The notes beneath the pieces are model-generated. The model had not been told where the DNA came from. It saw only the letters and a program-made list of their open reading frames with translations, and did not search any database. The position numbers were made by a program, and so were the translations under genes. From positions 64,466 through 128,465 of the forward strand of contig JACRHW010000023.1 of the NCBI GenBank assembly GCA_016217555.1: DNA of 64,000 bases. Reading direction: 5' to 3'. Shown here piece after piece: positions 5,527 through 62,025 of the stretch (position 1 is its first letter; each line of letters opens with the position of its first letter). Source of the DNA: Parcubacteria group bacterium (GTDB lineage: Bacteria; Patescibacteriota; Minisyncoccia; UBA6257; JACRHW01).

Positions 5527-5531
5527 ATATA

Positions 5532-6107
5532 TTATTTTGCTTCACCCTCGACTGTTGAAAATACTATTTTTCCCCCTTCAAACATATGCACATCACCCGT
5601 CTCTTCAGACACCGTATAAACTGTAGTACCCTCTAATTCGTAAGAGCTTGTAATAGCCGCCATGTGGCGCGCGTGAACCTTTTTCTTAAATCCAAGACGT
5701 GCTGAAAAATCCAATTTTGTATGCGTAGGCGCCACGACAAGGGCAAGCCGACTCGGACGAAGACCTTCAAGAATAACACCAGAGTGGAGGATCGTCCCTT
5801 TATGGTCTACCAGAATAGCACCGTCAAAATCAACAGTGACCGCAATTTTTTTTAAACTCTTTTCATCAAAAATACTTTGTTCTGTGGTTGAAAAAAGATC
5901 TTGAGACGAATCCGGAAATACTGCGTACACATCATTCCATTTTTGTTCCCATCCAAAAATTACCAAAAGACCAAACATTTTTTTTCGTCTGCTGGCGAGT
6001 TTCAAGATAAGTTCCAAAAGCCGCATTTTGTCATCATGAGACTTTTTAACAGATTCTTGTTTCAATACACTTTTAATTTTTTTAAGCACTGAAAGTAGTC
6101 TTTTCAT
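5532..6107 (-). CDS. Diadenylate cyclase (DAC/DisA_N) domain protein, a putative c-di-AMP synthase.
   Basis: Motifs appear in the canonical order: DFDGAILVD (DGA), HARHMAA (compare GTRHRAA) and VSEETGDVHMFEGGKI. No TM segments. 6 nt downstream of the nucleotidyltransferase gene. Confidence 0.6.
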   Translation of the reverse strand: MKRLLSVLKKIKSVLKQESVKKSHDDKMRLLELILKLASRRKKMFGLLVIFGWEQKWNDVYAVFPDSSQDLFSTTEQSIFDEKSLKKIAVTVDFDGAILVDHKGTILHSGVILEGLRPSRLALVVAPTHTKLDFSARLGFKKKVHARHMAAITSSYELEGTTVYTVSEETGDVHMFEGGKIVFSTVEGEAK

Positions 6108-6150
6108 AATATGAGATATCTAGTTATACACTCGAAAATGATGTTTTGTT

Positions 6151-7293
6151 TCATAATACACCTTTTTTGATTTTTTCACGTATACCTTCCACAAACGTAT
6201 TATAGTAAAAAAGATTATGTGTAGTAAGAAGGCGCATGGCCGTAATTTCTTTTGCTTTAAAAAGATGAGTGATATAACTTCTCGTATAGGATCCACATAC
6301 TTCACATTTGCAAGTTCTGTCGAGAGGCTTCTTATCACTCAAAAATACTGTCTTCGACATATTAAGTTTTCCTGTATCAGTAAAGGCAATGCCACGTCGT
6401 GCATAATGCGTGGGTACAATACAATCAAACAAATCTACTCCCGACTTGATTACCATCTCCATATCTTCAAGATATCCAATCCCCAAAAGATGGCGCGGTT
6501 TCTCCTCTGGCAAGTGCGGCATTGTCCAATCTAAAATATTCTTCATCGTCTTTTTTGACGATCCCAAATCCCCTCCTATCCCGAACCCATCAAAAGGAAG
6601 CCCACCAATATATGCTGCACTCTCCTCTCGTAAATCTCGAAACCGTGAACCCTGCACGATACCAAATAACGCCTGTTTACTCTTTTTTATTTTCAAACAC
6701 ATTTTTTCCCATTCATGCGTACGCTTCAACGACTCCTTAATATAATCGTAAGCAGCAAGCGGTGAAGTACACTCATCAAAAGTAAAAATAATATCCGCCC
6801 CCAGTGCTTCTTGTATTTTTATAGATTCCTTGGGACCAATAAATAATTCCTTTCCATCGATGGGTGAACGAAAGCGTACCCCATCAGGCAAAATCTTTAC
6901 CGTTTTGGGTTGGGCATTTTGATGAAGAACTTCCGTTTGTGCCCCCGGAAAAAACTTGAGCACCTTCCCAACCTGCGTATCCATACCAAATCCCAAACTA
7001 AACACCTGAAATCCCCCAGAGTCCGTCATCAGCGGTCTCTTCCATCGCATATACTCATGCAATCCTTTCATCTTTTTCACAATCGCCTCCCCTGGTTTTA
7101 GGTGAAGATGAAACGTATTTGCAATAAGAAGCTGACTCTTTGTTTTCTCCACCTCAGCGGAAGTAAGTGTCTTAACCGTCGCCTGTGTCGCCACAGGAAC
7201 AAAAGCAGGCGTCTCCACCTCTCCATGTGACGTCTTCAATACCCCCAACCGTGCTCTACTTTTATTCGACCATTTAATAACTTTGAACTCCAT
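6151..7293 (-). CDS. tgt: Queuine tRNA-ribosyltransferase.
   Basis: MEFKVIKW…GVLKTSHGEVETPAFVPV…LMTDSGGFQVFSL… plus the C-terminal zinc site CKCEVCGSYTRSYITHLF. The start is taken at the internal Met (7293), because the track start at 7320 would fall inside repeat R1. Confidence 0.9.
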   Translation of the reverse strand: MEFKVIKWSNKSRARLGVLKTSHGEVETPAFVPVATQATVKTLTSAEVEKTKSQLLIANTFHLHLKPGEAIVKKMKGLHEYMRWKRPLMTDSGGFQVFSLGFGMDTQVGKVLKFFPGAQTEVLHQNAQPKTVKILPDGVRFRSPIDGKELFIGPKESIKIQEALGADIIFTFDECTSPLAAYDYIKESLKRTHEWEKMCLKIKKSKQALFGIVQGSRFRDLREESAAYIGGLPFDGFGIGGDLGSSKKTMKNILDWTMPHLPEEKPRHLLGIGYLEDMEMVIKSGVDLFDCIVPTHYARRGIAFTDTGKLNMSKTVFLSDKKPLDRTCKCEVCGSYTRSYITHLFKAKEITAMRLLTTHNLFYYNTFVEGIREKIKKGVL

Positions 7294-7294
7294 A

Positions 7295-7403
7295 TATAAG
7301 ATACTAATATACGAATCCATACAAATGATACGAATGGTTACGAATACGTACGATATTCGTATTGATTTGTAGTATTAGTATCATTCGTATATTGGTATGT
7401 TAA
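7295..7403. repeat. R1 element copy 1: ~110-bp imperfect palindrome rich in ACGAAT/ATTCGT hexamers, immediately upstream of the tgt start codon.
   Basis: Near-identical copies at 48268..48380 and 50494..50600. Shared core: ATACTAATATACGAATCCATACAAATGATACGAATGGTTACGAATACGTACGATATTCGTATTGATTTGTAGTATTAGTATCATTCGTATATTGGTATG. Confidence 0.9.
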
Positions 7404-8691: not shown

Positions 8692-9912
8692 TTATCTTAA
8701 AAAGGCTTTTTTGCGAACGGCCCTATGGTACGTAATTGCAAAACGATGCGCCTCATCACGAACCTTAACAAGAACATCCTGATTATATCTACCAACATTT
8801 CCGACAAATTCATTTTTCTTACGGTCTCTACCCTTTGCGATACCTACGATCGGAATATTTATTTCTAAATCTCGTAATACTTTTTCTGCACAATGTACTT
8901 GTGGCAATCCTCCATCAACAAGAATAAGATTTGGCTGCTGCCACGGATGTTGAAATCGCCGTTGCAATATTTCCCGAAGCATTGCGACATCATTTGGACC
9001 CTCCACTGTCCTTATCTTAAATTTTCTATATTCACTTTTATCTGGTTTTCCGTCTATAAATACCACCATTGAACCCACCGCCGATGTTCCCGAGATATTA
9101 GAAATGTCATAGCCTTCGATGCGTGTATCTTGGATCTGGTATTTAGTATCTTGTATAACATCCCTTTTTATCAATGCTGTATCTTTAATATGACGTAACG
9201 CATTTATTTGACGTCTCAGTTTTTCCGCATGCTCAAACTCCTTTTTTTTACTCGCCTCTTTCATTTCTTTTTCTAACGATACGACTACACGTTCTTTCTT
9301 GCCAGCAAAAAAATTGTTGAGATAGTTAATTTGTTTTCTATATTCCGATTTAGTAATTGCACCGATACACGTGCCTGGGCACAATCCTATTTGATAATCA
9401 AAACAAGGTTTCTTCTGTATACTAATTTTTTTTTCTGGCGAATGAGTATTCCACGGAAATATTCTTCTTAAAATTCGCAATGCTTCACGAATATCCGAAG
9501 CAGACACAAAGGGACCAAATCGTTTTCCCATAATCTCAGATTTACCACGCACAAGAAGCACCCGCGGAAAAGGTTCTTTTGTAATTTCAACGTATAAAAA
9601 ACTTCGATCATCTTTTTCTCTTACGTTAAACGGAGGCTTATATTTCTTAATAAGCTCCGCCTCAAGCATTAACGCCTCAAGCACACTTCCTGTTTTTTTA
9701 TATTCAATCGAATGTATTCGAGATACCATAGATTCAATTCGTGCCTCATGCGAGCGATTAAAATAGCTCGATACTCTTCGTTTCAAATTTGCAGCCTTCC
9801 CCACATATAACAAAACCCCATGCTGATTTTTCATGAGATATACTCCGGGTGTAGTGGGAAAATTATTATACTTCATGATCTTCTTTATGTCACAAAACTT
9901 ATCCACACGCAA
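8692..9912 (-). CDS. uvrC: Excinuclease ABC subunit C, a short form.
   Basis: N-terminal GIY-YIG (PGVYLMKNQHGVLLYVGKAANLKRRVSSYF) and a UvrC endonuclease domain. The true start is probably the internal Met near 9876. Confidence 0.8.
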   Translation of the reverse strand: MRVDKFCDIKKIMKYNNFPTTPGVYLMKNQHGVLLYVGKAANLKRRVSSYFNRSHEARIESMVSRIHSIEYKKTGSVLEALMLEAELIKKYKPPFNVREKDDRSFLYVEITKEPFPRVLLVRGKSEIMGKRFGPFVSASDIREALRILRRIFPWNTHSPEKKISIQKKPCFDYQIGLCPGTCIGAITKSEYRKQINYLNNFFAGKKERVVVSLEKEMKEASKKKEFEHAEKLRRQINALRHIKDTALIKRDVIQDTKYQIQDTRIEGYDISNISGTSAVGSMVVFIDGKPDKSEYRKFKIRTVEGPNDVAMLREILQRRFQHPWQQPNLILVDGGLPQVHCAEKVLRDLEINIPIVGIAKGRDRKKNEFVGNVGRYNQDVLVKVRDEAHRFAITYHRAVRKKAFLR

Positions 9913-9989
9913 TATTGCACGTTTTATGCCTTGCCCCTATACTAGTTATTAGAACCTCGATAACCTATAAAGTAAAGGAGGTGATAAAA

Positions 9990-10178
9990 ATGGACCTCAT
10001 CAAGAAGGCTATCGAAACCCTGAGTGACGCTGGTCGTCAGTTCGCGGTGCTCGTGGCACTGTTGACGCTCGCCGTCCTGGCAGTAACTGCTGTTATGGCC
10101 GCCGTAAACGGTAATCCGGCAGGTGCAGTCAGTGGTCTTATGGACAGTTCCTTAGCTCACTGGGCATTCTCGCCTTGA
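9990..10178 (+). CDS. Small single-TM membrane protein (62 aa) in a GC-rich island.
   Basis: Strong SD AAGGAGGTGATAAAA-ATG. Sequence MDLIKKAIETLSDAGRQFAVLVALLTLAVLAVTAVMAAVNGNPAGAVSGLMDSSLAHWAFSP. GC is ~55% against the local background. Confidence 0.5.
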   Translation: MDLIKKAIETLSDAGRQFAVLVALLTLAVLAVTAVMAAVNGNPAGAVSGLMDSSLAHWAFSP

Positions 10179-10463
10179 ACAAGTACCTCGGCTAGTTCTA
10201 GTATAGTCTATTCTCCTCCTAAAAATTCAGCTGCTCTCCTCAGGGCAGCTTTTCATTTTTCACCAAGGTGAAAAATGATCTTGAGCTGAGCTTGCCGAAG
10301 GATAATTTTCTCGCCATTGTCGTTTTTATGCAGATAAAACCTTGGAAACAAATTATCCCACCTCTCTAACCTCTGCCATTATGCCACGTCATAATATAAG
10401 GTTTCTTTTTTGGTTCTTATATATCCACTCCTTTATCAGACGATCGTCACTTACGGGAGTAGG

Positions 10464-11294
10464 TCACGATTTCAATTGATATTCATCTTTGTTTTGTATA
10501 AGGAAACCTTCTTTTACTAAATCTGCTAAAATCTTTTGTATACGAGCAGAATCCTCCTTAATCTTGTGTGCAATTTCTTCCTTTGATTTCTTTCCCTCTT
10601 TAATAAGAAACTTTAAAATTATTCCACGAATTTTTCTATCTGATCCTTCGAATTTGGATTGTTTTTTATACGCCTTACTTTTTCTATTTGGATTTTCTGC
10701 ACGCATTATTTCACCAAGGTGCGTACCATAATCCATAAGCGCCCAATACCATTCGCGCGAACGTTTCTTATCGAGTGCAGTTTCTACGTATCTTAAAATA
10801 TCTTCATCTTTTACACTTTTTCTTTTTCCAAAAAAATGATGAATAAAAACACGCCGTATATTTGTTTCTATAAAAACAGTTGGTGTGTTGAACGCGAAAG
10901 TCACAATAGATCCAGCCGTCGCCTTTCCAATACCAGGAAAATTTACAAGAACTTCTGGTGCCTGAGGTAATACACCCTCGTATTCATGGACAACTCTTTG
11001 AGCAATTTTTTTAAGCGCAATAGCCCGCCTATTATATCCCATCCCCTGCCATGTTTTTAAGACATCAGAAAGGGGTGCTTTCGCCAAACTTTGAAAATCA
11101 GGAAACGCTTTTATAAATAATGGATACTTTTCCAAAACACGTTTTACCTGTGTCTGCTGAAGCATAATTTCAGAAACAAGAATGTGGTATGAATCTGTCG
11201 TCTCCCGCCACGGCATTGCGCGTTTATTTTTTCTATAGTAATCCCAAACTATTTTTTGAAATTCTTTAATTTTTTGTAAATCTTGCATTGTCAC
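10464..11294 (-). CDS. HhH-GPD superfamily DNA glycosylase (MutY/Nth-like) with a C-terminal winged-helix-like extension and no Fe-S cysteines.
   Basis: WDYYRKNKRAMPWRE (MutY-like N-terminus) and the HhH motif NFPGIGKATAGSIVTFAF. Confidence 0.65.
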   Translation of the reverse strand: MTMQDLQKIKEFQKIVWDYYRKNKRAMPWRETTDSYHILVSEIMLQQTQVKRVLEKYPLFIKAFPDFQSLAKAPLSDVLKTWQGMGYNRRAIALKKIAQRVVHEYEGVLPQAPEVLVNFPGIGKATAGSIVTFAFNTPTVFIETNIRRVFIHHFFGKRKSVKDEDILRYVETALDKKRSREWYWALMDYGTHLGEIMRAENPNRKSKAYKKQSKFEGSDRKIRGIILKFLIKEGKKSKEEIAHKIKEDSARIQKILADLVKEGFLIQNKDEYQLKS

Positions 11295-12350: not shown

Positions 12351-12476
12351 ATAGAACTTCTCTATTTGGATGCAGTACAAGGAAAACGCGAGGAACGGAG
12401 TAAGCCGTACACAAGAAGTACTGCGTCGAGTACCACAGCGTTTGACGAAGTAATGCGCCGAATAGAGAAGTTCTAT
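12351..12476. repeat. R2 element copy 1: conserved structured core (ATTTGGATG…AGGAAAACGCGAGGAACGGAG…GTTTGACGAAGTAATGCGCCGAAT) enclosed by a copy-specific 13-bp perfect inverted repeat (ATAGAACTTCTCT / AGAGAAGTTCTAT). It abuts the uvrA stop codon.
   Basis: Four copies in the window (12.35k, 37.33k, 47.85k, 61.0k). The flanking IR continues into ATTTGG/CCGAAT pairing (including a G·U), giving a ~19-bp closing stem. Confidence 0.85.
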
Positions 12477-21381: not shown

Positions 21382-21411
21382 AAACTCAAAAATCAAAACG
21401 CAAAACTGCAA

Positions 21412-21494
21412 CGCAAAACGAAAAACTAACTACATGATTCAAATAGTTTTGACTTTTAAGTTGTAGTTTTGACTTTTGCATTTTAAGTTTTGAA
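21412..21494. repeat. R4 element: CAAAACGCAAAAC-rich imperfect palindrome between atpD and atpC.
   Basis: Second copy at 53879..53985 (between rnhB and dnaE): …AAAACGCAAAACTnCAACGCAAAACGnAAAACTAAC…AGTTTTGA…TTTTGCATTTTAAGTTTT. Confidence 0.8.
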
Positions 21495-23809
<2,315 letters not shown>

Positions 23810-29810: not shown

Positions 29811-29930
29811 GAATGAGATATCTTCATCTCTAGTCTACGCCGAAGACCATCTTCCCACAATCTGTGTATTCATGACCAATAATCACATACGGATCAGAAG
29901 CAATGCCACCGAACTGCTGTGGTATGTATT

Positions 29931-30065
29931 TCGAACCATTCCGCAGGTGCGGAGCTGGGTGTTGTCAATCCTGATCCGCCGGCTGGCGGAGAATTGGATT
30001 GACAACGAAGCGCCTGCGGATGAGTGAGGATACCGCTGGGTATCTGAACATGTGAGGAATACATA
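29931..30065. repeat. R7 element copy 1 (~95 nt upstream of dnaX): GC-rich conserved core CGAACCATTCCGCAGGYGCGGAGCTGGGTGTTGTCAATCC…GGATTGACAACGRAGCGCCTGCGGATRAGTGAG… enclosed by a copy-specific inverted repeat.
   Basis: Second copy at 61897..62025, upstream of miaA. The long internal hairpin is GTTGTCAATCC/GGATTGACAAC. The flanks here (GCCACCGAACTGCTGTGGTATGTATT / AATACATACCACGGTAGTTCGGC) differ from those of copy 2 (ACCACGAAAT / ATTTCGTGGT). Confidence 0.8.
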
Positions 30066-32530: not shown

Positions 32531-32802
32531 CCCTCACCACAACCGCCTCTCTCAGCGGTCTTTTATTTTTCTAAACATCCTTTATCATGATTACAGGCAG
32601 TGCAAAATCGAAGATTAAAATGAGCCCTCAAGGGGGAGTCAGGTGTTATCGCTATTTATGGTGAGCTTGTCGAATCCATGATAGGGGGACTGTAGGGGTC
32701 TCCCTCTTGTAGGCGAACTTTTAATCTTCGGTCTTGCATACCAAATCCACACGTTGACTCAATAAAACAAAAAAACTAAACTATAAGTACTTAACAATTT
32801 AA

Positions 32803-32864
32803 TTATCAAGAGTGTGGCGAGAGTTCTAGCTCTGTGACCCACCAGCAACTTGTCTCAAAGATAA
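32803..32864 (+). promoter_or_regulatory. Candidate SAM-binding riboswitch-like leader upstream of metK.
   Basis: TTATCAAGAG…GGCGAGAG…CTCTGTGACCCACCAGCAAC…CTCAAAGATAA. An S-box-like 5' P1 strand (UUAUCAAGAG) pairs with a 3' GAUAA. An internal GAGAG/CUCU hairpin and a GCAAC motif are present. It is shorter than a canonical SAM-I aptamer. Confidence 0.3.
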
Positions 32865-32952
32865 AGTGCTTCTAGCCCTAATGGGAAAGATAATCGTCGC
32901 ACATCATCTCTCCCGCAAGGAGGGTGTTTTTATTATTACTAACCATTACAAC

Positions 32953-34002
32953 ATGTTTATACCAACAACCTATACTGTAGAAAGTGTTACCTCAGGTCAT
33001 CCTGACAAAGTGTGCGATCAGATTTCAGATGCGTCACTCGACGCATGCCTCAAAGAAGATCCAAAAAGTCGTGTCGCCGTAGAAGCCTTTGGCGGTCATG
33101 GCCATCTTGTGATAGGAGGTGAGGTTACCTCAAAAGCAACAGTCAATTATGCAGAGCTTGCCAGAAATTTATATAGAGACATTGGCTATGATGATGCGCT
33201 TGATATAGCTGTCTATGTAGCACAACAATCCCCTGACATCTCGCAAGGTGTCGATACGGGTGGTGCAGGAGACCAGGGCATCATGTATGGCTATGCAACA
33301 GATGAGACGCCCGAGCATCTTCCTGCTGGGATTGTTCTCGTGCATAAACTTACTAAAGGGCTTGAGGATCTACGCAAAAATAAAATAGTCTCATGGCTTA
33401 AACCCGATGGAAAGGCACAGGTAACAATGCAAGACAATCGCCTCACTACCATCCTTGTAAGCACAGAGCACGATGAATCAGTTACCCAAGATGAGATTAG
33501 AAAAACAATTTCGGAGAAACTTATTACACCGCTTGGTGTTGATCCGAACTCAATAGAACTTTTTGTAAATCCTACGGGGAAATTTGTGATGGGTGGTTTC
33601 GAAGCAGATACCGGACTTACTGGACGAAAAATAATGGTAGACACCTACGGTGGTCTTATCCAACATGGGGGTGGGTGCTTCTCAGGAAAAGATCCAACAA
33701 AAGTAGATCGCTCAGCAGCCTATATGTGCCGATTCGTTGCAAAAAACATTGTCGCAAACAAGCTTGCAAAAACGTGTTTTGTCTCTGTTGCCTATGCCAT
33801 TGGCCACGCAGAACCCCTTATGATTTACGCTGCCGATGAAACAGGAAAAGACCTGAGCGTAATCGCAAAAGAAAAATTTGATTTTCGCCCACAGGCAATC
33901 ATCGAACGCCTCAACCTTCGCCGCCCTATTTATCTCCAAACCGCTACCTATGGCCACTTTGGAAAACAAGGCCTCCCCTGGGAAGAAATAATTACGATAT
34001 AG
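32953..34002 (+). CDS. metK: S-adenosylmethionine synthetase.
   Basis: MFIPTTYTVESVTSGHPDKVCDQISDA…GGGAFSGKDPTKVDRSAAY. The start is set at ATG 32953. The track's GTG at 32866 would extend the ORF into the leader. Confidence 0.9.
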   Translation: MFIPTTYTVESVTSGHPDKVCDQISDASLDACLKEDPKSRVAVEAFGGHGHLVIGGEVTSKATVNYAELARNLYRDIGYDDALDIAVYVAQQSPDISQGVDTGGAGDQGIMYGYATDETPEHLPAGIVLVHKLTKGLEDLRKNKIVSWLKPDGKAQVTMQDNRLTTILVSTEHDESVTQDEIRKTISEKLITPLGVDPNSIELFVNPTGKFVMGGFEADTGLTGRKIMVDTYGGLIQHGGGCFSGKDPTKVDRSAAYMCRFVAKNIVANKLAKTCFVSVAYAIGHAEPLMIYAADETGKDLSVIAKEKFDFRPQAIIERLNLRRPIYLQTATYGHFGKQGLPWEEIITI

Positions 34003-34020
34003 TTTCCACCCCTTCTTCCG

Positions 34021-34117
34021 TCATTCCCGCGATTTATAGTGAGCTTAGTCGAACCAAGGCGGGAATCCAGTCGTTCTGTCATCCTGAGACATCAGGCGAA
34101 GGATCTCTCGAAATGAC
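34021..34117. repeat. R6 element: hairpin TCATTCCCGC…GCGGGAATC (A-block) followed by GTCATCCTGAGACATCAGGCGAAGGATCTCTC (B-block).
   Basis: The same two blocks recur at 59025..59075 and 59358..59398, separated there by a ~280-bp insert that is flanked by a duplicated GCGGGAATC. Confidence 0.75.
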
Positions 34118-37324: not shown

Positions 37325-37331
37325 CAACCTT

Positions 37332-37452
37332 GGGACCTACGTATTTGGATGCATTACGAGGAAAACGCGAGGAACGGAGTAAGCTGTACAGAATGAGTAC
37401 TGCGTCGAGTACCACAGTATTTGACGAAGTAGTGCGCCAAATGGGTAAGTCC
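37332..37452. repeat. R2 element copy 2. The core is ~95% identical to copy 1 and the flanking IR is different and imperfect (GGGACCTACGT / GGGTAAGTCC). It ends 2 nt before the typA stop.
   Basis: Same conserved blocks as R2 copy 1. The internal helix GCATTAC/GTAGTGC (including a U·G pair) corresponds to GCAGTAC/GTAATGC in copy 1. Confidence 0.85.
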
Positions 37453-37454
37453 TA

Positions 37455-39245
37455 TTATTTTCTTCGTGCTCGTGCTCGATCCAGATCAGTAAGAAATTCC
37501 TTGCGAAGACGTACGCTTTTAGGGGTGACTTCTAGGAGTTCATCGTCTTCCATAACCTCAAGACCACGCTCGATGGTAAGTTGCCACGCAGGTGCAAGCT
37601 GAATGTTATCATCAGTTCCTGAGGCACGCATATTAGTAAGCTGTTTGCCCTTAGTAGGGTTTACCGACATTGCGTCACCCTTTGCAGTGTTTCCTATTAC
37701 CATACCTTCATACACTTCAACATTAGGTTCAATATAAAGCTGTCCGCGTGTCTGAAGATTATCAAGAGAATAACCCAATGCTTTCCCGGTAACCATAGAC
37801 ACCATAGAACCAGCACTTCTTTTCACCAAGTCACCACAATAAGGTTTAAATCCTTCTACACGGCTCGCCATAATCCCCTGACCCTTTGTGTCCATAACAA
37901 ACTGATTGCGGTATCCAAGAAGCCCACGTGTGGGACCCTCAAATATCATACGCACTGTATTTTCATGTGGATCCATACTAACAATACGCGCCTTTCGATT
38001 TGAAAGTCGTTCAATAATAATGCCCTGGAATTCTGATGGAACATCGATAGTGATCTCTTCAAAGGGCTCCTGTTTCGCTCCATCAACTTCTTTAATAATA
38101 ATGTGTGGCTGGGATACCTGAAGCTCAAACCCCTCTCTTCGCATGATCTCAAGAAGAATGGCAATGTGGAGCTCACCTCGTCCAAAAACACGAAATTTAT
38201 CTGCATCAACAAAATCAACATGTAAACCCACGTTCACCTCGAGTTCTTTTTCAAGGCGTTCTCGAATTTGTCGTGAAGTAACAAACTTTCCTTCGCGTCC
38301 TGCAAAAGGAGAATTGTTAACCATAAAGTTAAGTGAAATAGTTGGCTCATCTACGTGTATAGAAGGGAGCGCTTCTTGAGTAGGAGAGGCGCAAATAGTT
38401 TCACCAATAAAAATGTCAGGGATTCCGGCGATCATCGCAATATCTCCTGCCACAGCCTCAGATACATCTTCGCGAGAGAGCCCACGGAAGGTAAAGATCT
38501 TTGAAATTTTTCCAGAACGGGTGGCACCCTCCATGTTTTTTATGTATACATTATCACCCACCTTAATTACCCCTTCATAAACACGGGCAATAGCAAGACG
38601 CCCGAGATAGTTGTCATAGGCAAGGTTAAAGGGTTGTGCACGCAAAGGCGCATCAATATTTCTTGGCGCAGGAGGAATTTCTTCGATAATAGTATCGAGA
38701 AGTGGAGAAAGATCAACAAACGTATCAGTAAGCTCACGTTTAGCTACCCCATCTCGGCCAACCGCATAGACCGTAACAAAATCAAGTTGTTCGTCATTTG
38801 CGCCAAGATCAATAAAAAGCTCGAGCACTTCATTTTCAGTACGCTTGATGTCAGCCGCTGGCTTATCAATCTTATTCACCACGACAATAGGCTTTAAACC
38901 TATCTCGAGCGCTTTCTTGAGTACAAAACGTGTCTGTGGCATAGGCCCCTCCTGAGCATCGACAATAAGAAGCACTGCATCAATTGAACGCAATACGCGT
39001 TCCACCTCAGAACCAAAATCAGCGTGACCAGGAGTGTCTACGATATTAATCTTTGTACCCTTATAAAATATTGAAGTGTTTTTTGAATAAATAGTAATGC
39101 CACGCTCCTTCTCGAGTGTGTTTACATCCATACTCATCCCCTCCTCGAACATTCCGCACTGACGCATAATAGCATCGGTGAGAGTTGTTTTACCGTGGTC
39201 AACGTGAGCAATGATAGCAATATTTCTAATTTCTGTTGGCTCCAT
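37455..39245 (-). CDS. typA: Translational GTPase TypA/BipA.
   Basis: IRNIAIIAHVDHGKTTLTD plus EF-G-like domains. Start set at MEPTEIRN (39245). Confidence 0.9.
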   Translation of the reverse strand: MEPTEIRNIAIIAHVDHGKTTLTDAIMRQCGMFEEGMSMDVNTLEKERGITIYSKNTSIFYKGTKINIVDTPGHADFGSEVERVLRSIDAVLLIVDAQEGPMPQTRFVLKKALEIGLKPIVVVNKIDKPAADIKRTENEVLELFIDLGANDEQLDFVTVYAVGRDGVAKRELTDTFVDLSPLLDTIIEEIPPAPRNIDAPLRAQPFNLAYDNYLGRLAIARVYEGVIKVGDNVYIKNMEGATRSGKISKIFTFRGLSREDVSEAVAGDIAMIAGIPDIFIGETICASPTQEALPSIHVDEPTISLNFMVNNSPFAGREGKFVTSRQIRERLEKELEVNVGLHVDFVDADKFRVFGRGELHIAILLEIMRREGFELQVSQPHIIIKEVDGAKQEPFEEITIDVPSEFQGIIIERLSNRKARIVSMDPHENTVRMIFEGPTRGLLGYRNQFVMDTKGQGIMASRVEGFKPYCGDLVKRSAGSMVSMVTGKALGYSLDNLQTRGQLYIEPNVEVYEGMVIGNTAKGDAMSVNPTKGKQLTNMRASGTDDNIQLAPAWQLTIERGLEVMEDDELLEVTPKSVRLRKEFLTDLDRARARRK

Positions 39246-41691: not shown

Positions 41692-42375
41692 CTATTTCAT
41701 CTCTACGATTCTGCGAAAACGATCAATGATGTGTTCAGCATATGCCTTGCCCCCCAAACCAAATGCCAATCCTCCGGCGATAGCAAGCATTGCAACAACA
41801 CCTGTTACTACAATCGAAACAATCGTCTCTGCAACTTGCAACTGAAGGAGGGATGCAAACAAGCCAAAAATAAAGATTGCCCACCATGCAATGGCACCTA
41901 CAAGTTCTGAACCAGCAAGCTCAGCGCCTTTTGCTGATGCGCCAACAAACATTTTTACGAGATTCGCAACCCACACTGTCGCAAGCATAATTACTGTTGC
42001 TGCAAACACGCTAGGAAGGTATGCCATCACTTGAGCCAAAAATTGTGAAAATTGTGGTAATCCAAGAATATCAGACACCGCAATTAAAAACCCAATCATA
42101 ACAAACCAATAAACAAGTCTTCCCAAGAAATGCCCCGAATGCAAACGCATTCCTCCACGCGATACCACCTCTTCAAACCCAGCTTTTTTAAGCAAGGAGT
42201 CAACTTGTGCGAGAGTAATAATTTTTTCTACCAATGTTCCAAGGCCAGCTGCTACAATCCACCCAACAAGAAGGGTGAGAAGAGCACCAACAAGTGCAGG
42301 GATAAACGCTGCAGTACTCCTCCCAAGTTGGGTAAGAGACTGAAATAATATATCAAGCCATGCTTGAACTGTCAT
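41692..42375 (-). CDS. Hypothetical polytopic membrane protein, possibly MscS-like TM region.
   Basis: 227-aa ORF with 5-6 hydrophobic helices. No soluble domain. Confidence 0.4.
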   Translation of the reverse strand: MTVQAWLDILFQSLTQLGRSTAAFIPALVGALLTLLVGWIVAAGLGTLVEKIITLAQVDSLLKKAGFEEVVSRGGMRLHSGHFLGRLVYWFVMIGFLIAVSDILGLPQFSQFLAQVMAYLPSVFAATVIMLATVWVANLVKMFVGASAKGAELAGSELVGAIAWWAIFIFGLFASLLQLQVAETIVSIVVTGVVAMLAIAGGLAFGLGGKAYAEHIIDRFRRIVEMK

Positions 42376-42626: not shown

Positions 42627-42699
42627 GGGCTCGTAGTAAAGTGGCATTACGCCGCATTCGCATTGCGGAAGCAGGAGTCCGATTCTCCTCGAGTCCACC
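42627..42699 (+). tRNA. tRNA-Ala (anticodon CGC).
   Basis: Cloverleaf: acceptor GGGCTCG/CGAGTCC including G3·U70. D-arm GTAA/TTAC. Anticodon arm CCGCA-TTCGCAT-TGCGG with U33 and A37. T-arm AGGAG-TCCGATT-CTCCT. Discriminator A followed by CC. Confidence 0.8.
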
Positions 42700-42797
42700 C
42701 CGTTAGAAGTAGACCAAAACGACTTTTTTAGATTTCTCTATTTTTTGACACCATATGTCTTATGCGTGCTAAATATTTTTATCTACTTCTAACGGGG
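42698..42797. repeat. R3 hairpin module: 16-bp perfect IR CCCCGTTAGAAGTAGA / TCTACTTCTAACGGGG around a 66-nt AT-rich loop, fused to the tRNA-Ala 3' end and followed by TCCACC.
   Basis: Family arms (ATCCCGTTAGAAG…) also occur at 42869..42965, 47678..47782 and 60844..60919. Confidence 0.85.
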
Positions 42798-42835
42798 TCC
42801 ACCACATATATCAATATTTCTAACGGGGCAAGTTG

Positions 42836-42872
42836 CTGAGACGCGAGTTCGATTCTCGCTGGGTCCACCCCG
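42836..42872 (+). pseudogene. tRNA 3'-half fragment: part of an anticodon stem, T-arm GCGAG-TTCGATT-CTCGC, acceptor 3' strand TGGGTCC, then ACC. No 5' half.
   Basis: A canonical T-loop and a 3' acceptor are present, but there is no complementary 5' acceptor strand upstream. It is preceded by an orphan R3 half-arm CTAACGGGG at 42827..42835. Confidence 0.5.
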
Positions 42873-42965
42873 TTAGAGGTAGATAACAACGCTTTGGTGG
42901 TGTATTAAAATTTTCAATACTAAAACAACGCAAGATTTTAAATCTATGTTGGTCTACCTCTAACG
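42869..42965. repeat. R3 hairpin module: IR CCCCGTTAGAGGTAGA / TCTACCTCTAACGGGG, followed by TCCACC.
   Basis: Second tandem unit after the tRNA fragment. Confidence 0.85.
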
Positions 42966-42991
42966 GGGTCCACCAATTAAAAAGGCCAGTT

Positions 42992-43273
42992 CTACAACTG
43001 ACCCAAAATTTCTTTTTTACCTTTTTCCGTTAGGCGAAAGGAGGAAACTACTTGCTGAGTATCATCTTCGTTACAATCATTATAGAGAAGTCCTTCTTGC
43101 AATGCCCACGCAACAGATGCAGCAAGAAATTTTTGACCTCGAGGATTACTGTCAAGAGTGACGAAATCCGCTCGATTATTTCTGAAAGCGCGAATAAACA
43201 CACCTCTATACTCCTCGACAGAATTCTGACCAATGTATTGATACCCATAATCCACGATTGCCGGTTCGTCCAT
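42992..43273 (-). CDS. Hypothetical protein (93 aa).
   Basis: ORF only. No recognised domain. Confidence 0.35.
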   Translation of the reverse strand: MDEPAIVDYGYQYIGQNSVEEYRGVFIRAFRNNRADFVTLDSNPRGQKFLAASVAWALQEGLLYNDCNEDDTQQVVSSFRLTEKGKKEILGQL

Positions 43274-47677: not shown

Positions 47678-47782
47678 ATCCCGTTAGAAGTAATCTAAAT
47701 TTTTCAATTCTCCACCATACTTAGAAGCTAAAACAAACAGCAATGCATCATAATGACATATTGTGGTTACTTCTAACGGGAT
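47678..47782. repeat. R3 hairpin module: 16-bp perfect IR ATCCCGTTAGAAGTAA / TTACTTCTAACGGGAT with a 73-nt loop.
   Basis: 68 nt to the left of R2 copy 3. Confidence 0.85.
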
Positions 47783-47850
47783 CCATCGGAAATCAATAAA
47801 AGTAATATACTTATAAACTATCACAAAAAACTAGCTTTGTCAATCAATCC

Positions 47851-47975
47851 TAGAACCTACATATTTGGATGAAGTGCGAGGCGCACATGAGAAACGGACT
47901 GAACTGTATTTCACTGATACAGCGAAGGAGTATCGCAGTGTGCAACGAAGCAGTTCGCCGAATATGTAGGTTCTA
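47851..47975. repeat. R2 element copy 3, diverged core, with a 15-bp perfect flanking IR TAGAACCTACATATT / AATATGTAGGTTCTA. It ends 1 nt before the rpsP stop.
   Basis: The ATTTGGATG … GAGAAACGGA … ACGAAG … TTCGCCGAAT blocks are conserved. The central region differs. Confidence 0.8.
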
Positions 47976-48267: not shown

Positions 48268-48380
48268 TTATATAAGATACTAATATATGAATCCATACAA
48301 ATGATACGAATGGTTACGAATACGTACAATATTCGTATTGATTTGTAGTATTAGTATCATTCGTATATTGGTATGGTTAA
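48268..48380. repeat. R1 element copy 2, immediately upstream of the rpsP start and downstream of the smc stop.
   Basis: Near-identical to 7295..7403. Confidence 0.9.
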
Positions 48381-48384
48381 TCTT

Positions 48385-50493
48385 TTAAGTCAACTTTAAT
48401 GATAAAATTTTCGATATTCCATCGTCTGCCATGGTGACTCCGTACAAAACGTCTGCTGCCTCCATAGTAGCGCGGTTGTGTGTAATGATAACAAATTGTG
48501 TCTTTTTGGCAAGGTCTCCCATAATCTCCTTAAACTTCACAGCATTCTGCTCATCAAGTGCCGCATCTACCTCATCAAGCACCAGGAAGGGTGGTTCACT
48601 CACTGCGACAAGTGCGCACATGAAAGCAAGAGCCACAAGAGTCCTCTCACCTCCCGAAAGCATGTCTAAACTCGTAATTTTTTTACGGGGAAGATCAATT
48701 TTGATATCTACACCCGTTATGACATTGGCAACACCCTCTTCACCTTTCGATTCTTTTGTTATGACAAGTCGCGCCTTACCCCCATCAGATAATTTTCCAA
48801 AGGCGTAGGTAAACTCCTTGTTCAACTTCTCTGTAGCTATATCGAAATCTGTTTTTATTTTATGGCTCAACTCCTCAATTAATGAACGGAGATCATCTGT
48901 TGCTTTAATCAAATCCCCCGATTGTTCGGTAAGAAACACATGTCGATCTTCTGTAGATTTGAGTTCAGCAAGTAAGGCATCATCCATCTCACCAATTGAT
49001 GAGAGTTCCCGTTTGAGGCGCGTGATCTTTTCTTCAAGGCCAAGAGCGCTCTGTGCCCCAACCATCTGTACCTCGTTACGCCGAGCAAGAAAATCGTTAA
49101 ATGACATGCCCGCCTCCTGTACTTTTTCCTTAATCTGATCAACCTGAAACCCTAATCTTTCGCGTTCCAAACGCAATCCATCCTCACGAGAACGCATCGT
49201 AAAGACCTCGCGACGTAAAACATCCACTGCGCCAATAGCATTTGAAAACGAGCGCGTACGTTCATCGTATGCAACCTCTTCATGTTCTTCCTGTTTCAGA
49301 AGCCCATCAATTTCCCCATTCAATGCTTCTATGCATTTTTCTAACTCCTTTTTTTTAATTTCATATTCTTCAAGATAGATGCCTTCCTTTGATTCCTTTT
49401 TAAAAAGAGATTTTATACGATCAACAAGCGCGCGCAAGGATTCACGAAGACGAACAATATCATTTTCGTGAAGCAACGTCTCACAGGTAGATTCAATCTC
49501 CTCTATAGTACTTCGCAATAGAGCATATCCAGGCTCACCTTCTTTTGTCTGCTCGCGAAGTTTCTTAGTAAGTTCATGTTCAAGAGCATAGAGTTTCTGT
49601 GTATAGTCTTGTCGTTCACGCTCCTTATCACGCCTTCCTTGTTTCGCCTTAAACAATGTCGTACGGTCTGTATCTACCGCTACATGTTTCAATTTCTCCT
49701 CCTCTAATGCGAGTGTGGTATTTTTTTGTGAAACGAGGGTCGCCATTGTCTGAAATGCATTCTCGCAAGTATCAAGCTCTTGAGTAATTTTGTTATAACG
49801 ATCGGAATAATGAGTGCGCACAGCACTTGCGAGCTCTATAGCAATACCCTCCCTGCGCGTATAACGCTCCGCACTACGTTTCAATGAACGAAGGTGAGGC
49901 GTAATCTCTTCAAGCAGTGTTTTTGTTTGTACTAAATTCTGTTCGGCAGAAGCCAACTTCGTAATGGTCTCGTTTTGCTTCAATTGATACTCTTTAAGCC
50001 CCACCGCCTCTTCAATAAGCTCTCTTCTCTTTTCTGGTGTTACCCGAATAAAATGATCCACCTCTCCCTGATTAACAATAGTAACTCCCTTAGTACCGAT
50101 CTTTGCGCGTGCACACATTTCGATAATATCCTTAAGACGTACCTCTTCTCGATTAAGAAAAAAACGAGAAGTACCATCGCGCTCAACACGACGACCAAGT
50201 GAAAACTCAGAAAACTCAACAGGAAACACACCGCTTGTATTATCAAAATGAAGCCATGCCTCCGCAAAGGACATAGCTGTCTTTTTGTGACTCCCAGAAA
50301 AAATAAGACTCCCCTGGTTCTCTGATCGGAGATTTTGTGCACCACGCTCCCCCAAAATCCAACGGAACGCATCAACAACATTCGACTTCCCTGATCCATT
50401 GGGGCCGACAACCGCAGTCACGCGCGCAGGAAACTCAAGCGTTGTCTTATTCGCAAATGATTTAAAACCAATAAGTTCAATGGACTTCAACAT
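48385..50493 (-). CDS. smc: SMC-like chromosome segregation ATPase, a short 702-aa form.
   Basis: N-terminal Walker A GPNGSGKSN. Long coiled coil. C-terminal signature LSGGERTLVALAFMCAL and Walker B LVLDEVDAALD. Confidence 0.7.
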   Translation of the reverse strand: MLKSIELIGFKSFANKTTLEFPARVTAVVGPNGSGKSNVVDAFRWILGERGAQNLRSENQGSLIFSGSHKKTAMSFAEAWLHFDNTSGVFPVEFSEFSLGRRVERDGTSRFFLNREEVRLKDIIEMCARAKIGTKGVTIVNQGEVDHFIRVTPEKRRELIEEAVGLKEYQLKQNETITKLASAEQNLVQTKTLLEEITPHLRSLKRSAERYTRREGIAIELASAVRTHYSDRYNKITQELDTCENAFQTMATLVSQKNTTLALEEEKLKHVAVDTDRTTLFKAKQGRRDKERERQDYTQKLYALEHELTKKLREQTKEGEPGYALLRSTIEEIESTCETLLHENDIVRLRESLRALVDRIKSLFKKESKEGIYLEEYEIKKKELEKCIEALNGEIDGLLKQEEHEEVAYDERTRSFSNAIGAVDVLRREVFTMRSREDGLRLERERLGFQVDQIKEKVQEAGMSFNDFLARRNEVQMVGAQSALGLEEKITRLKRELSSIGEMDDALLAELKSTEDRHVFLTEQSGDLIKATDDLRSLIEELSHKIKTDFDIATEKLNKEFTYAFGKLSDGGKARLVITKESKGEEGVANVITGVDIKIDLPRKKITSLDMLSGGERTLVALAFMCALVAVSEPPFLVLDEVDAALDEQNAVKFKEIMGDLAKKTQFVIITHNRATMEAADVLYGVTMADDGISKILSLKLT

Positions 50494-50600
50494 ATAAAAA
50501 TACTAATATACGAATCCATACAAACGATACGAATGGTTACGAATACGTACAATATTCGTATTGATTTGTAGTATTAGTATCATTCGTATATTGGTATGGT
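50494..50600. repeat. R1 element copy 3, immediately upstream of the smc start codon and abutting the rnc stop.
   Basis: Near-identical to copies 1 and 2. Confidence 0.9.
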
Positions 50601-53239: not shown

Positions 53240-53878
53240 CTATACCATATTTTTAAGAAACGTCAAACGATGAGAAGGTGTTCTTCCGATACCCTGAATT
53301 GCCTTAATGTGCATCTTTGTTCCATACCCCTTATTTTGCTCCCAGCCGTAGTGAGGATACTTTTTTGCGAAACGTACCATGAGAGCGTCGCGAATACATT
53401 TTGCAATTACTGAAGCGAGTGCGATTGCGAACACACGGCTGTCTCCCTTTATAAATGTCGCTTGTTTTTCTTTCTCTAGTTTTGGTACAAAGAGTCCACC
53501 ATCGCAGGTTACAAAAAAAGAATCAAATCCTTGTATGGTATATTTTTTAATCAGCGCATCACACCCACGTATCCCCGCCCAATAGATATTATATTTATCA
53601 ATTTCTTTTGGTGACGCTTTGTAAACGATGTAAGGAATATCGAGTTCAACTACCTGTTTAAAAATCGCCTCTCTTTTTTTCTGTGATAGTTGTTTTGAGT
53701 CGTTTACTCCTTTAATTTTTCTAAGTGCCTTTTCGTCCCCCTTTCGCAAAATCGTCGCCACCAAAACCATCGGCCCTGCCAAGCTTCCACGTCCCACCTC
53801 ATCGATACCTATTACAGCATCATAGCTCTTACGCCACAAGCTTTTTTCGAGTTTTAAATCCATGCTATGATAAATCAA
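53240..53878 (-). CDS. rnhB: Ribonuclease HII.
   Basis: GIDEVGRGSLAGPMVLVATIL. Confidence 0.85.
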   Translation of the reverse strand: MIYHSMDLKLEKSLWRKSYDAVIGIDEVGRGSLAGPMVLVATILRKGDEKALRKIKGVNDSKQLSQKKREAIFKQVVELDIPYIVYKASPKEIDKYNIYWAGIRGCDALIKKYTIQGFDSFFVTCDGGLFVPKLEKEKQATFIKGDSRVFAIALASVIAKCIRDALMVRFAKKYPHYGWEQNKGYGTKMHIKAIQGIGRTPSHRLTFLKNMV

Positions 53879-53985
53879 AAGTCAAAACGCAAAACTTCAA
53901 CGCAAAACGTAAAACTAACGCCATTTGTTAAAAAGTTTTGATTTTTGGTTTGTAATTTTGATTTTTGCATTTTAAGTTTTAATTT
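53879..53985. repeat. R4 element copy 2 in the divergent rnhB/dnaE intergenic region.
   Basis: Shares the CAAAACGCAAAAC…TTTTGCATTTTAAGTTTT palindrome with 21412..21494. Confidence 0.8.
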
Positions 53986-59024: not shown

Positions 59025-59440
59025 TGTCATTCCCGCGATTTATGGTGAGCTTAGTCGAACTAAGGCGGGAATCTAGAATCGATATCTCCTATGAACTAAA
59101 AAACTCCGCGTGCACGGGGTTTCTTAGTAAGGCCCAAGTTCTCTATCAACAGTTACCCATTGAACAGTTTTTCCTTGCGGTCAAACCTTCGATTCTTGAA
59201 CCTTATTATTAACTTAATCCAACCTAAAAACCGAAGCAAGTGGAAAAACTGTGCATAGGTGCCAATTTTGTTTGCGCGATACGCAATTCAAAATTGAGCA
59301 TCCTGAGGCAACAGCCGAAGGATCCCACAGAACCAAGATAAGCGGGAATCCAGCTATCTCGTCATCCTGAAGCATCAGCTGAAGGATTTCTCTCCTACGA
59401 CTAATTCCGAAATCAAGAAATTCCCGCGACGTGCTCGGAA
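59025..59440. repeat. Composite R6 region: A-block (59025..59075), a ~280-bp insert, a duplicated GCGGGAATC, then B-block (59358..59398).
   Basis: Compare 34021..34117, where the A-block and B-block are adjacent. The layout looks like a nested insertion with duplication of the 9-bp GCGGGAATC. Confidence 0.6.
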
Positions 59441-60843: not shown

Positions 60844-60919
60844 ATCCCGTTAGAAGCAGTAACTATTGAGGTTTAACCTCAATAGTTACACTGCGTGCCC
60901 TCGCGGCTTCTAACGGGAT
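60844..60919. repeat. R3 hairpin module: IR ATCCCGTTAGAAGC / GCTTCTAACGGGAT with a 48-nt loop that has its own inner hairpin.
   Basis: 85 nt to the left of R2 copy 4. Confidence 0.85.
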
Positions 60920-61866: not shown

Positions 61867-61896
61867 TTCTTGATCGACGGACCACGAAATCTATGT

Positions 61897-62025
61897 TCCG
61901 AACCATTCCGCAGGCGCGGAGCTGGGTGTTGTCAATCCTGAATCACAATGAATTGGATTGACAACGGAGCGCCTGCGGATAAGTGAGCCATCCGCTGGAG
62001 TGGCGAACGAGTGAGAAATATATAT
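61897..62025. repeat. R7 element copy 2, upstream of miaA, flanked by the IR ACCACGAAAT / ATTTCGTGGT.
   Basis: Core matches 29931..30065. The central loop differs. Confidence 0.8.

Follow-up and report, generated by a model that had tools for sequence, protein, structure and literature searches.

A tRNA-Ala(CGC) gene overlaid by MITE-like R3 elements, and candidate mobile tRNA cassettes, in a Parcubacteria group bacterium

The window analysed here, a 64-kb stretch of contig JACRHW010000023.1 (GCA_016217555.1) from a Parcubacteria group bacterium, has a single tRNA predicted by ARAGORN, a tRNA-Ala(CGC), and several copies of a small inverted-repeat family, termed R3. We consider it probable that three R3 copies were piled onto this tRNA-Ala(CGC) gene, and that one of them (M0) carried a tRNA into the resident gene; the other two (M1 and M2) lie behind tRNA 3' ends. 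The mobility of R3 is directly shown by the filled and empty sites of a further copy (M3), and tRNA genes nested in a comparable manner were found in other contigs of the candidate phyla radiation (CPR).

The tRNA-Ala(CGC) locus

The layout of the locus on the plus strand is given in Table 1. A first-pass annotation had named a tRNA 3' end followed by two R3 modules, a lone half-arm, a tRNA 3' fragment and a recurring TCCACC; all of these are present on direct reading of the sequence, although the half-arm CTAACGGGG is located at 42820-42828, about 7 nt lower than the 42827-42835 that had been given. The 16-mer arm has 8 matches at up to 3 mismatches, as against 0.29 expected by chance, and CTAACGGGG has 5 matches, as against 0.18. 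TCCACC is found at 42694-42699, 42798-42803, 42864-42869 and 42969-42974; it recurs because the target TCCA was duplicated, and the CC that follows is either the start of R3 (left side) or the displaced CC of an encoded CCA (right side).

M1 and M2 each interrupt a tRNA-Ala(CGC) 3' end, with the discriminator A on one side of the insertion point and the encoded CCA on the other. Excision of M1 and one TCCA gives back ...CGAGTCCACCA, i.e. CGAGTCCA-CCA-CATATATC, and excision of M2 and one TCCA gives back CTGGGTCCA-CCA-ATTAAAAAGG; the restored empty-site sequences are GAGTCCACCACATATATC for M1 and CTGGGTCCACCAATTAAAAAGG for M2. The tRNA-Ala genes at all 11 orthologous loci (L120-L130; loci from other genomes are numbered with the prefix L) end in ...GGTCCACCA, i.e. 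with CCA encoded. The repeated insertion events that the first-pass annotation had suggested are borne out in this respect, two of them being located exactly at tRNA 3' ends. The insertion of M1 turned the encoded CCA of the intact tRNA into CCC; this tRNA is predicted to be still usable, as the CC at the start of the R3 end gives the gene an ...A-CCC terminus that would require no more than 3' trimming and CCA repair.

Alignment with orthologous loci, proposed earlier as a route to the empty sites, was made with the 11 loci, which were recovered via homologues of the adjacent mechanosensitive (MS)-channel-like gene. Each has a single tRNA-Ala(CGC) in the same place and is without R3; the upstream spacer is orthologous as far as the tRNA start, and the gene order p90, p330, tRNA-Ala, MS-like channel gene is kept. 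The 3' fragment together with the following CC (37 nt) has 2 differences to L120 and 3 to L125 and L128, versus 10 to the adjacent intact tRNA. The intact tRNA has 17-23 differences in 73 nt to the L120, L125 and L128 genes, 12 to L122, and 2 to the copy in L141, a relative described below. The tRNA genes of L125 and L128 differ at 4 positions only, though their MS-like genes are just 69% identical. Judged by these distances, the fragment is the relic of the native gene (termed type A), and the intact tRNA (type B) is a divergent replacement.

The native fragment comprises the T arm (GCGAG TTCGATT CTCGC) and the acceptor strand TGGGTCC, followed by A. In the T loop of type B (UCCGAUU, 42678-42684), C stands in place of the near-universal U55, and this is kept in at least three lineages (window, L141 and L122). 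The sequence GCAAGTTGCTGAGACG (42828-42843), at the junction with the relic, has a 16-nt inverted near-copy with one mismatch (GCAAGTTGC[T/A]GAGACG) at 41824-41839 inside the MS-channel-like gene; the copy in the gene is native and conserved in relatives, and the match may be due to chance or may be a templated repair patch. Rfam searches at gathering and permissive thresholds gave tRNA only, beyond weak chance matches. A tmRNA-like (transfer-messenger RNA) match at 42795-42870 was rejected: GGGTCCA pairs with TGGGTCC, and the fold (z = +0.5) is no stabler than those of shuffled sequences.

The slot downstream of tRNA-Ala is variable among the relatives. In L125 (1-2900), the tRNA is followed by phage-like genes (HTH_17, DUF5659, and a faint match to sigma-70 region 4), and L122 and L123 encode a 623-aa serine recombinase near the locus (9482-10684 and 5205-6407, respectively). 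In L168 (2367-2700), a duplicated promoter with a 5' fragment and a downstream copy extending from the anticodon arm to the 3' end are both broken at CATTCGCA/ACCT; this arrangement looks like an attachment-site (att) duplication of the integrase type rather than an R3 event.

The complement of the window locus is found in L141 (GCA_016211955.1, contig JACRHX010000029.1), the closest relative that shares M3. On the L141 strand that corresponds to the plus strand of the window, the order is the native promoter, the type A 5' half GGGCCCATGGTTCAGTGGTAGAACACCGCATT, TTCA, an orphan left R3 arm CCCCGTTAGAAATTAA, the type B tRNA, an M1 homologue in the same place as M1, TCCA, and unrelated downstream DNA; M2 is missing. 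The window is the mirror image, i.e. type B tRNA, M1, 14 nt, the right arm ATTTCTAACGGGG, CAAG, and the type A 3' half. The orphan arms of the two genomes are perfect reverse complements over 13 nt, and both have a GAAAT variant that M1 to M4 are without. Furthermore, the two type A halves (5' from L141, 3' from the window) pair perfectly into a complete acceptor stem with G3:U70. The missing 5' half that the first-pass annotation had proposed to search for was not found in the 64-kb window, but the matching half is kept in L141. In another genome (L172), a single contig contains a 5' half, CATT-TTCA-CCCCGGTAAAT..., an inner tRNA, ...AAATCGGGA-CA, and a 3' half, with decayed arms; its left junction is the same as that of L141 (CATTTTCACCCCG).

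The following course of events is suggested by three genomes. M0 would have been an R3 copy of about 116 bp, CCCCGTTAGAAAT-TAA-(complete tRNA-Ala(CGC))-CCA-CATATATCAAT-ATTTCTAACGGGG, that inserted into the native anticodon loop, at the anticodon and A37, halving the native gene while bringing a working copy of the same isoacceptor. M1 would next have inserted behind the incoming tRNA, prior to the separation of the window and L141 lineages, and M2 would have landed behind the 3' half of the native gene. In the window lineage, the native 5' half and the left arm of M0 appear later to have been deleted (about 53 nt, as the alignment suggests), with ATCAG left before the tRNA, and this deletion would have put the incoming tRNA straight behind the native promoter; the L141 lineage would have deleted the right arm of M0 and the native 3' half.

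Table 1. Features of the tRNA-Ala(CGC) locus and other features located in the window
Feature	Position	Strand	Remarks
SAM (S-adenosylmethionine) riboswitch	32800-32896		Rfam, 49.9 bits; precedes metK (32866-34002)
Intact tRNA-Ala(CGC), type B	42627-42699	+	ARAGORN; Rfam, 59.6 bits; G3:U70; T loop UCCGAUU
Left TCCA of the M1 target duplication	42694-42697		Last acceptor bases and discriminator; direct reading
R3 element M1, 100 bp	42698-42797		16-bp perfect terminal inverted repeats CCCCGTTAGAAGTAGA / TCTACTTCTAACGGGG; hairpin z = -7.6
Right TCCA of M1	42798-42801		Target duplication
Original CCA end of type B, displaced	42802-42804		CCA is encoded in all orthologous tRNA genes
Putative M0 interior remnant, 11 nt, CATATATCAAT	to 42815		Follows the displaced CCA
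Putative M0 right terminal inverted repeat, ATTTCTAACGGGG	42816-42828		'Orphan half-arm' of the first-pass annotation; reverse complement CCCCGTTAGAAAT = orphan left arm of L141 over 13 nt
Junction tetranucleotide CAAG	42829-42832		In the split gene, stands where the anticodon and A37 were (CGCA in the native gene)
Pseudogene fragment of the native tRNA-Ala(CGC), type A: 3' half, canonical nt 38-73	42833-42867	+	2 of 37 nt differ from L120
R3 element M2, 101 bp	42868-42968		Arms CCCCGTTAGAGGTAGA / TCTACCTCTAACGGGG; TCCA at 42864-42867 and 42969-42972
Displaced CCA of the native tRNA	42973-42975		Downstream of the right TCCA of M2
Terminator-like hairpin of the convergent 93-aa gene (p93)	42983-43004	-	Shows where the downstream flank of the native tRNA originally lay
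R3 element M3, 103 bp	47679-47781		TCCCGTTAGAAGTAA...TTACTTCTAACGGGA; flanking 4-mers TCTA and TCCA
R3 element M4, 74 bp, short class	60845-60918		Perfect TCAA/TCAA duplication; three-way-junction fold, z = -9.5

The R3 family

R3 was searched for as CCGTTAGARG-N50-80-CYTCTAACGG, with one genome per species. At least 117 R3 stretches are among the matches listed, mostly from many CPR/Patescibacteria classes; some matches lie in contigs labelled Planctomycetota, Deltaproteobacteria, Nitrospinota and others, and viral contigs contributed a single match. The terminal inverted repeat (TIR) has a length of 13 bp with the consensus Y-CCCGTTAGARG-N (YCCCGTTAGARG-N) in 125 copies, and of 16-23 bp in the window copies. 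The end pair is YCCCGTTAGARG (left) and CYTCTAACGGGR (right); the inverted repeat runs two bases past the searched core, and its outermost pair is Y:R (CC..GG in 63 and TC..GA in 47 of the 125 modules). A perfect 4-bp direct repeat flanks 69 of the 125 copies, whereas random re-pairing of left and right flanks would give 6.1. The target consensus is T-N-N-A (first base T in about 80%, fourth base A in about 80%), and the commonest targets are TCAA, TTCA and TCCA; CTTG on the left with CAAG on the right also borders some R3 copies that are without cargo. The lengths show two peaks, at 74-82 bp and 94-104 bp, no protein is encoded, and all four R3 copies of the window are predicted to form very stable hairpins (z from -4 to -9.8). 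The window contains four full copies and one arm in its 64 kb, and up to 3-4 copies occur per 8-kb locus elsewhere. The interiors of M1, M2 and M3 are unalignable with one another; sub-families with conserved interiors exist in other genomes.

That R3 is mobile is directly observed for M3, which is present in the spacer between rpsP and the KH-protein gene in the window and in L138 and L141, and absent from the same spacer of L132, L134, L137, L139 and L140, with both flanks conserved. The filled spacer reads ...TTTCCGA-TGGA(TCCCG...CGGGA)TAGA-TAAGAA..., and the empty spacer reads TTTCCGA-TAAGA-TAAGAA (L132, L134 and L137; KH protein 99% identical).

Because of its TIRs, its 4-bp target duplication, its lengths and its stable hairpins, R3 is regarded as a non-autonomous DNA transposon, i.e. 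a miniature inverted-repeat transposable element (MITE). The features that it shares with MITEs are TIRs, a duplication of fixed length, a small, non-coding and multicopy nature, and filled and empty sites. One further MITE feature, a full-length R3-ended element with a transposase, was not found in the approximately 1.8 Mb searched, which does not prove its absence. Pairs of arms 0.7-3.5 kb apart have no transposase inside, and the genes that they enclose are housekeeping genes (e.g. valS, uvrC and infC). Similarly, no protein family recurs near R3 modules in an all-against-all BLAST of 972 open reading frames (ORFs) from R3 loci, and a Pfam scan of 20 window ORFs gave no transposase domain. 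R3 would presumably be moved by a DDE-type transposase that is supplied in trans. In the searchable literature we found neither the R3 sequence described nor any account of Patescibacteria MITEs or of MITEs that carry tRNA.

Three other assignments of the repeat were considered and rejected. A DNA uptake sequence was dropped on account of the target duplications. In integron attC sites, the order is the opposite (R'' RYYYAAC ... R' GTTRRRY, versus GTTAGAA ... TTCTAAC in R3); R3 encloses 50-80 nt, and there are no cassette ORFs. Finally, for repetitive extragenic palindromes (REP/REPIN) with their REP-associated tyrosine transposases (RAYT), the R3 arms are not self-complementary, target duplications are present, and no RAYT-like family recurs near the modules in the loci searched (loci, not whole genomes).

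Two R3 copies lie within genes. A mini R3 hairpin of 32 nt (CCCCGTTAGAGGTTGAAGGCTCTCTAATGGGG) lies in frame within the valS coding sequence of L086 (around 4226-4262), and the 5' acceptor strand of a tRNA-Ala in L240 (around 495-625) is interrupted by R3, with a clean 4-bp CCTG duplication (GGG-CCTG(CCCCGTTAGAAAC...GTTTCTAACGGGG)CCTG-TAGTAAAG).

Nested tRNA genes in other contigs and competing explanations

A metagenome scan with the tRNA-Ala 5' motif gave 120 loci (L142-L261). Among these and the R3 loci, about 20 further contigs have a repeat-flanked tRNA inside a disrupted tRNA of its own kind. Nested tRNA-Ala(CGC) genes were found in L173, L180, L206, L246, L261, L256, L192, L154, L162, L212, L183, L252, L150, L147, L243 and L027, to which L227, with an insertion at a different position, and L240, a more complex case, are added. 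The inner tRNA-Ala(CGC) is intact and lies between inverted repeats of 10-21 bp, which mostly start with YCCC and end with GGGR, in the anticodon loop of the outer gene. The same architecture was seen with tRNA-Pro(GGG) in L115 and L261, tRNA-Arg(TCG) in L220 and tRNA-Val(CAC) in L172. Inner and outer types vary, the inner gene being type A-like in L162 and L261. Across all fetched loci, a piece of a similar tRNA lies no more than 450 nt from 38 of 339 tRNA genes (about 11%).

The junction pair CATT(TT)CA/YCCC ... GGGR/C(A/G)AG/TTGC recurs with three arm sequences (window and L141, L162, and L212); others are an exact insertion at 37/38 (L256 and L192) and CATTCG/TCCC (L173, L180, L206, L246 and L261). 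The arm sequence of L180 (TCCCTCACCCTT) also forms inverted pairs without cargo in L085 and L125, and such arms are therefore MITE ends that are not specific for tRNA. In the T loop of the outer relics, TTC and GATT are often separated by an additional small hairpin insertion (L172, L173, L180, L256, L162, L183 and L261), and one relic in L162 has two copies of a single T-loop hairpin element.

A broader interpretation, for which we see a serious but still tentative case, is that these arrangements represent an undescribed class of CPR mobile tRNA cassettes, in which a complete tRNA between hairpin-forming YCCC...GGGR repeats (a superfamily that would include R3) enters, kills and replaces the resident gene of the same isoacceptor, giving nested genes and a turnover of tRNA alleles. 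Insertions in the anticodon loop would survive only when the element carries the same tRNA.

Several observations weigh against the origin proposed for the locus. The junctions of M0 have no clean 4-bp duplication (left, TTCA; right, CAAG; native gene, CGCA), the full M0 is a composite of two genomes (window and L141), and in L172, the single-contig case, the arms are decayed and the outer halves do not pair together. The interiors of the four window copies are unrelated, which is unusual for a MITE family, and no R3-ended autonomous element or transposase was found either in the window or in the 1.78 Mb of fetched loci. Junctions are of different types in different lineages, and no single duplication rule could be derived for the anticodon-loop junctions. 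Finally, cargo and target are always of the same isoacceptor, which a transposon with random T-N-N-A targets does not predict unaided; this rule may reflect either a preference for tRNA loops with survival of those insertions that complement themselves, or spread by homologous recombination via the tRNA halves.

The latter possibility leads to the strongest of the competing explanations, which we nevertheless regard as unlikely: the nested structure is real and the cassette is not a transposon, and it either spreads by transformation and homologous recombination with the outer tRNA halves, or is inherited vertically with its repeats selected as an RNA processing stem. Apart from the isoacceptor rule, this explanation is favoured by the lack of a clean duplication at the nested junctions, and by the left junction CATT-TTCA-CCCC, which occurs in three lineages with differing arms (L141, L172 and L212) and at loci that are not orthologous, that is, in a tRNA array in L172 and beside the MS-like channel gene in the window. 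It would also be in line with arms that usually abut the inner tRNA ends and would lengthen the acceptor helix in the transcript, and with the presence of an RNase III gene. However, the family to which the M0 arms belong is dispersed and inserts demonstrably with target duplications, and the arms of L180 occur without cargo, as described above. The closest relatives, L120 and L128, are uninterrupted and thus indicate a recent event in the lineage, and perfect repeats of 10-21 bp with lineage-specific sequence fit independent insertions more easily than they fit drift from a single ancestor.

It is very unlikely that a tRNA-targeting integrative element (a prophage or island) came in by site-specific recombination, was mostly deleted later, and left the partial tRNA and the TCCACC repeats behind as its attL/attR scars. 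Such elements are suggested by the direct repeat of the tRNA 3' part, which starts in the anticodon loop, a classical integrase crossover site; by the variable downstream slot with the phage-like genes of L125 and the large serine recombinase near the locus in L122 and L123; and by the att-like duplicated anticodon-arm pieces of L168. The two tRNA-Ala 3' parts of the window, however, are just 133 bp apart with no integrase, cargo or ORF in between; the intact tRNA is divergent throughout and not a chimera of a native 5' and an element-derived 3' part; the core of the anticodon loop is not duplicated; and in L141 the native 5' half lies immediately upstream, with only an R3 arm between. Next to the tRNA ends, the repeats are accounted for by the 4-bp duplications of R3, a family whose insertions lie mostly away from tRNAs, although a few further copies abut tRNA ends (e.g. 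at a tRNA-Val in L022 and a tRNA-Leu in L045). As TCCA ranks among the three commonest targets and most copies have no tRNA beside them, the targeting is attributed to a preference for sequence, generally T-N-N-A, and not to recognition of a tRNA att site, as the first-pass annotation had considered.

The first-pass annotation had also considered a degenerate split or permuted tRNA arrangement. To a functional tRNA (split, permuted or intron-containing) put together as RNA, with the R3 arms as its pairing helix, we give hardly any weight. The break lies at or near the canonical position 37/38, the classical intron site (exactly so in L256 and L192), and the arms would extend the outer anticodon stem. 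Against this, an intact gene with the same anticodon lies inside, the outer anticodon is mutated or lost (TTCA, CAAG), outer genes elsewhere have further insertions and unpaired stems, the window lacks a 5' half, and the fold of the pseudo-tRNA (42795-42870) has the z score of +0.5 given above. ARAGORN in intron mode was negative for the window, for the nested loci tested (including L141, L172 and L256) and for a composite of L141 and the window. Bacteria are not known to possess a bulge-helix-bulge splicing endonuclease. What stands of the split-tRNA idea is the physical break, as an insertion in the anticodon loop separated this 3' half from the rest of its tRNA-Ala(CGC) gene.

A tandem duplication of a unit of about 170 bp (tRNA 3' half and R3 module) with subsequent divergence, in line with the direct repeats spaced 170-171 bp apart (59 nt at 76% and 31 nt at 87% identity), is scarcely credible, as the interiors of M1 and M2 are unalignable though they would have been identical at duplication, the fragment has 2-3 differences to the genes of relatives versus 10 to the neighbouring tRNA, and the 5' half in L141 is not predicted.

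Further features, significance and comparison with known systems

The window is bacterial, with about 41% G+C and a Patescibacteria/CPR-like gene content; it encodes TypA, a DEAD-box helicase, a ZIP transporter, SMC, ribosomal protein S16, ATP synthase and metK, and its nearest protein relatives are annotated as Patescibacteria group bacteria. An exact-protein look-up of the MS-channel-like gene gave no record. That p330 and p93 are a split form of a 493-aa gene of L141 was rejected (27% identity, with p93 uncovered). The Logan assembly of SRR12113407 (L001), which was built separately, is identical to the window at every base over 42683-43000; it may have the same sample origin as the window.

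For a genome that is called streamlined, the window is rich in small repeats. A family of about 125 nt with the ends TTAGAACCTACATAT.../...ATATGTAGGTTCTA is located at 12351-12476, 37330-37455, 47850-47975 and 61005 to about 61250, and M3 and M4 each lie 70-90 nt from one of its copies. The copy at 47850 is absent from the rpsP-KH spacer of L132, L134 and L137, hence this repeat is also regarded as an insertion. A 107-nt repeat with inverted-repeat ends is present in three copies with 93-98% identity (7293-7399, 48269-48375 and 50492-50598), two of which bracket the SMC gene. Three more intergenic repeats occur in two copies each with 79-96% identity (21383-21496 and 53872-53985; 29929-30065 and 61896-62024; 34020-34109 and 59026-59392).

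These results suggest that supposedly streamlined genomes carry a very widespread small mobile family, and that tRNA genes of CPR bacteria are replaced, apparently commonly, from within by incoming, element-borne copies between repeats that split the resident gene. This would be a route at the DNA level to fragmented tRNA genes, which bears on the origin of split and intron-containing tRNA genes and on the horizontal spread of tRNA alleles. In practical terms, R3 hairpins break assemblies, e.g. the Logan contigs, which break off at the tRNA-Ala locus, and tRNA relics with R3 at tRNA ends are likely to cause confusion in the annotation of tRNA and att sites in metagenome-assembled CPR genomes.

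Among known systems, R3 is most readily compared with bacterial MITEs (Correia/NEMIS of Neisseria, RUP of Streptococcus pneumoniae, ERIC/IRU, and Nezha of cyanobacteria), which likewise have 70-160 bp, TIRs and a short target duplication, are non-coding, intergenic and multicopy, form a hairpin in the transcript, and are polymorphic for presence or absence between strains. Unlike for these, no parent insertion sequence was found for R3; copies in the same genome have unrelated interiors, the family is spread over many CPR classes as well as other phyla, and one copy probably carried a whole tRNA gene. The CCC...GGG ends with a 4-bp duplication recall the piggyBac superfamily/IS1380 (terminal repeat CCCTAGAAAGATA and target TTAA in piggyBac, versus YCCCGTTAGAAGTA and T-N-N-A in R3), which we take as a resemblance only; R3 differs from these by its degenerate target and its variable outermost Y:R pair. 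The Rickettsia palindromic elements (RPE) are also small palindromes with no known transposase in a reduced genome, and insert in RNA genes as well as in frame in protein genes; R3 is unrelated to them in sequence and has clear 4-bp target duplications.

With tRNA-targeting integrative elements, the proposed M0 event shares the hit in the anticodon loop, the restoration of function by the incoming DNA, and the downstream displacement of the native 3' fragment. Those elements, however, are of multi-kilobase size and carry only the 3' part of a tRNA, whereas M0 would have about 116 bp, inverted-repeat ends and a whole tRNA, with no integrase and no duplicated core, and would have displaced the native 5' half, too. 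The split and intron-containing tRNA genes of archaea (the halves of Nanoarchaeum, introns at 37/38, and the proposal of fragmentation by mobile elements) have in common with the locus an interruption at or near 37/38 and flanking repeats that can pair; here, in contrast, the outer gene is dead, the host is bacterial, and the interrupting DNA encodes the same tRNA. Finally, plant Pack-MITEs and transduplication, as well as composite transposons with passenger genes, provide examples of host genes carried by a non-autonomous element with TIRs, from which M0 would differ in that its cargo is a bacterial tRNA gene, placed inside the resident copy of the same gene.

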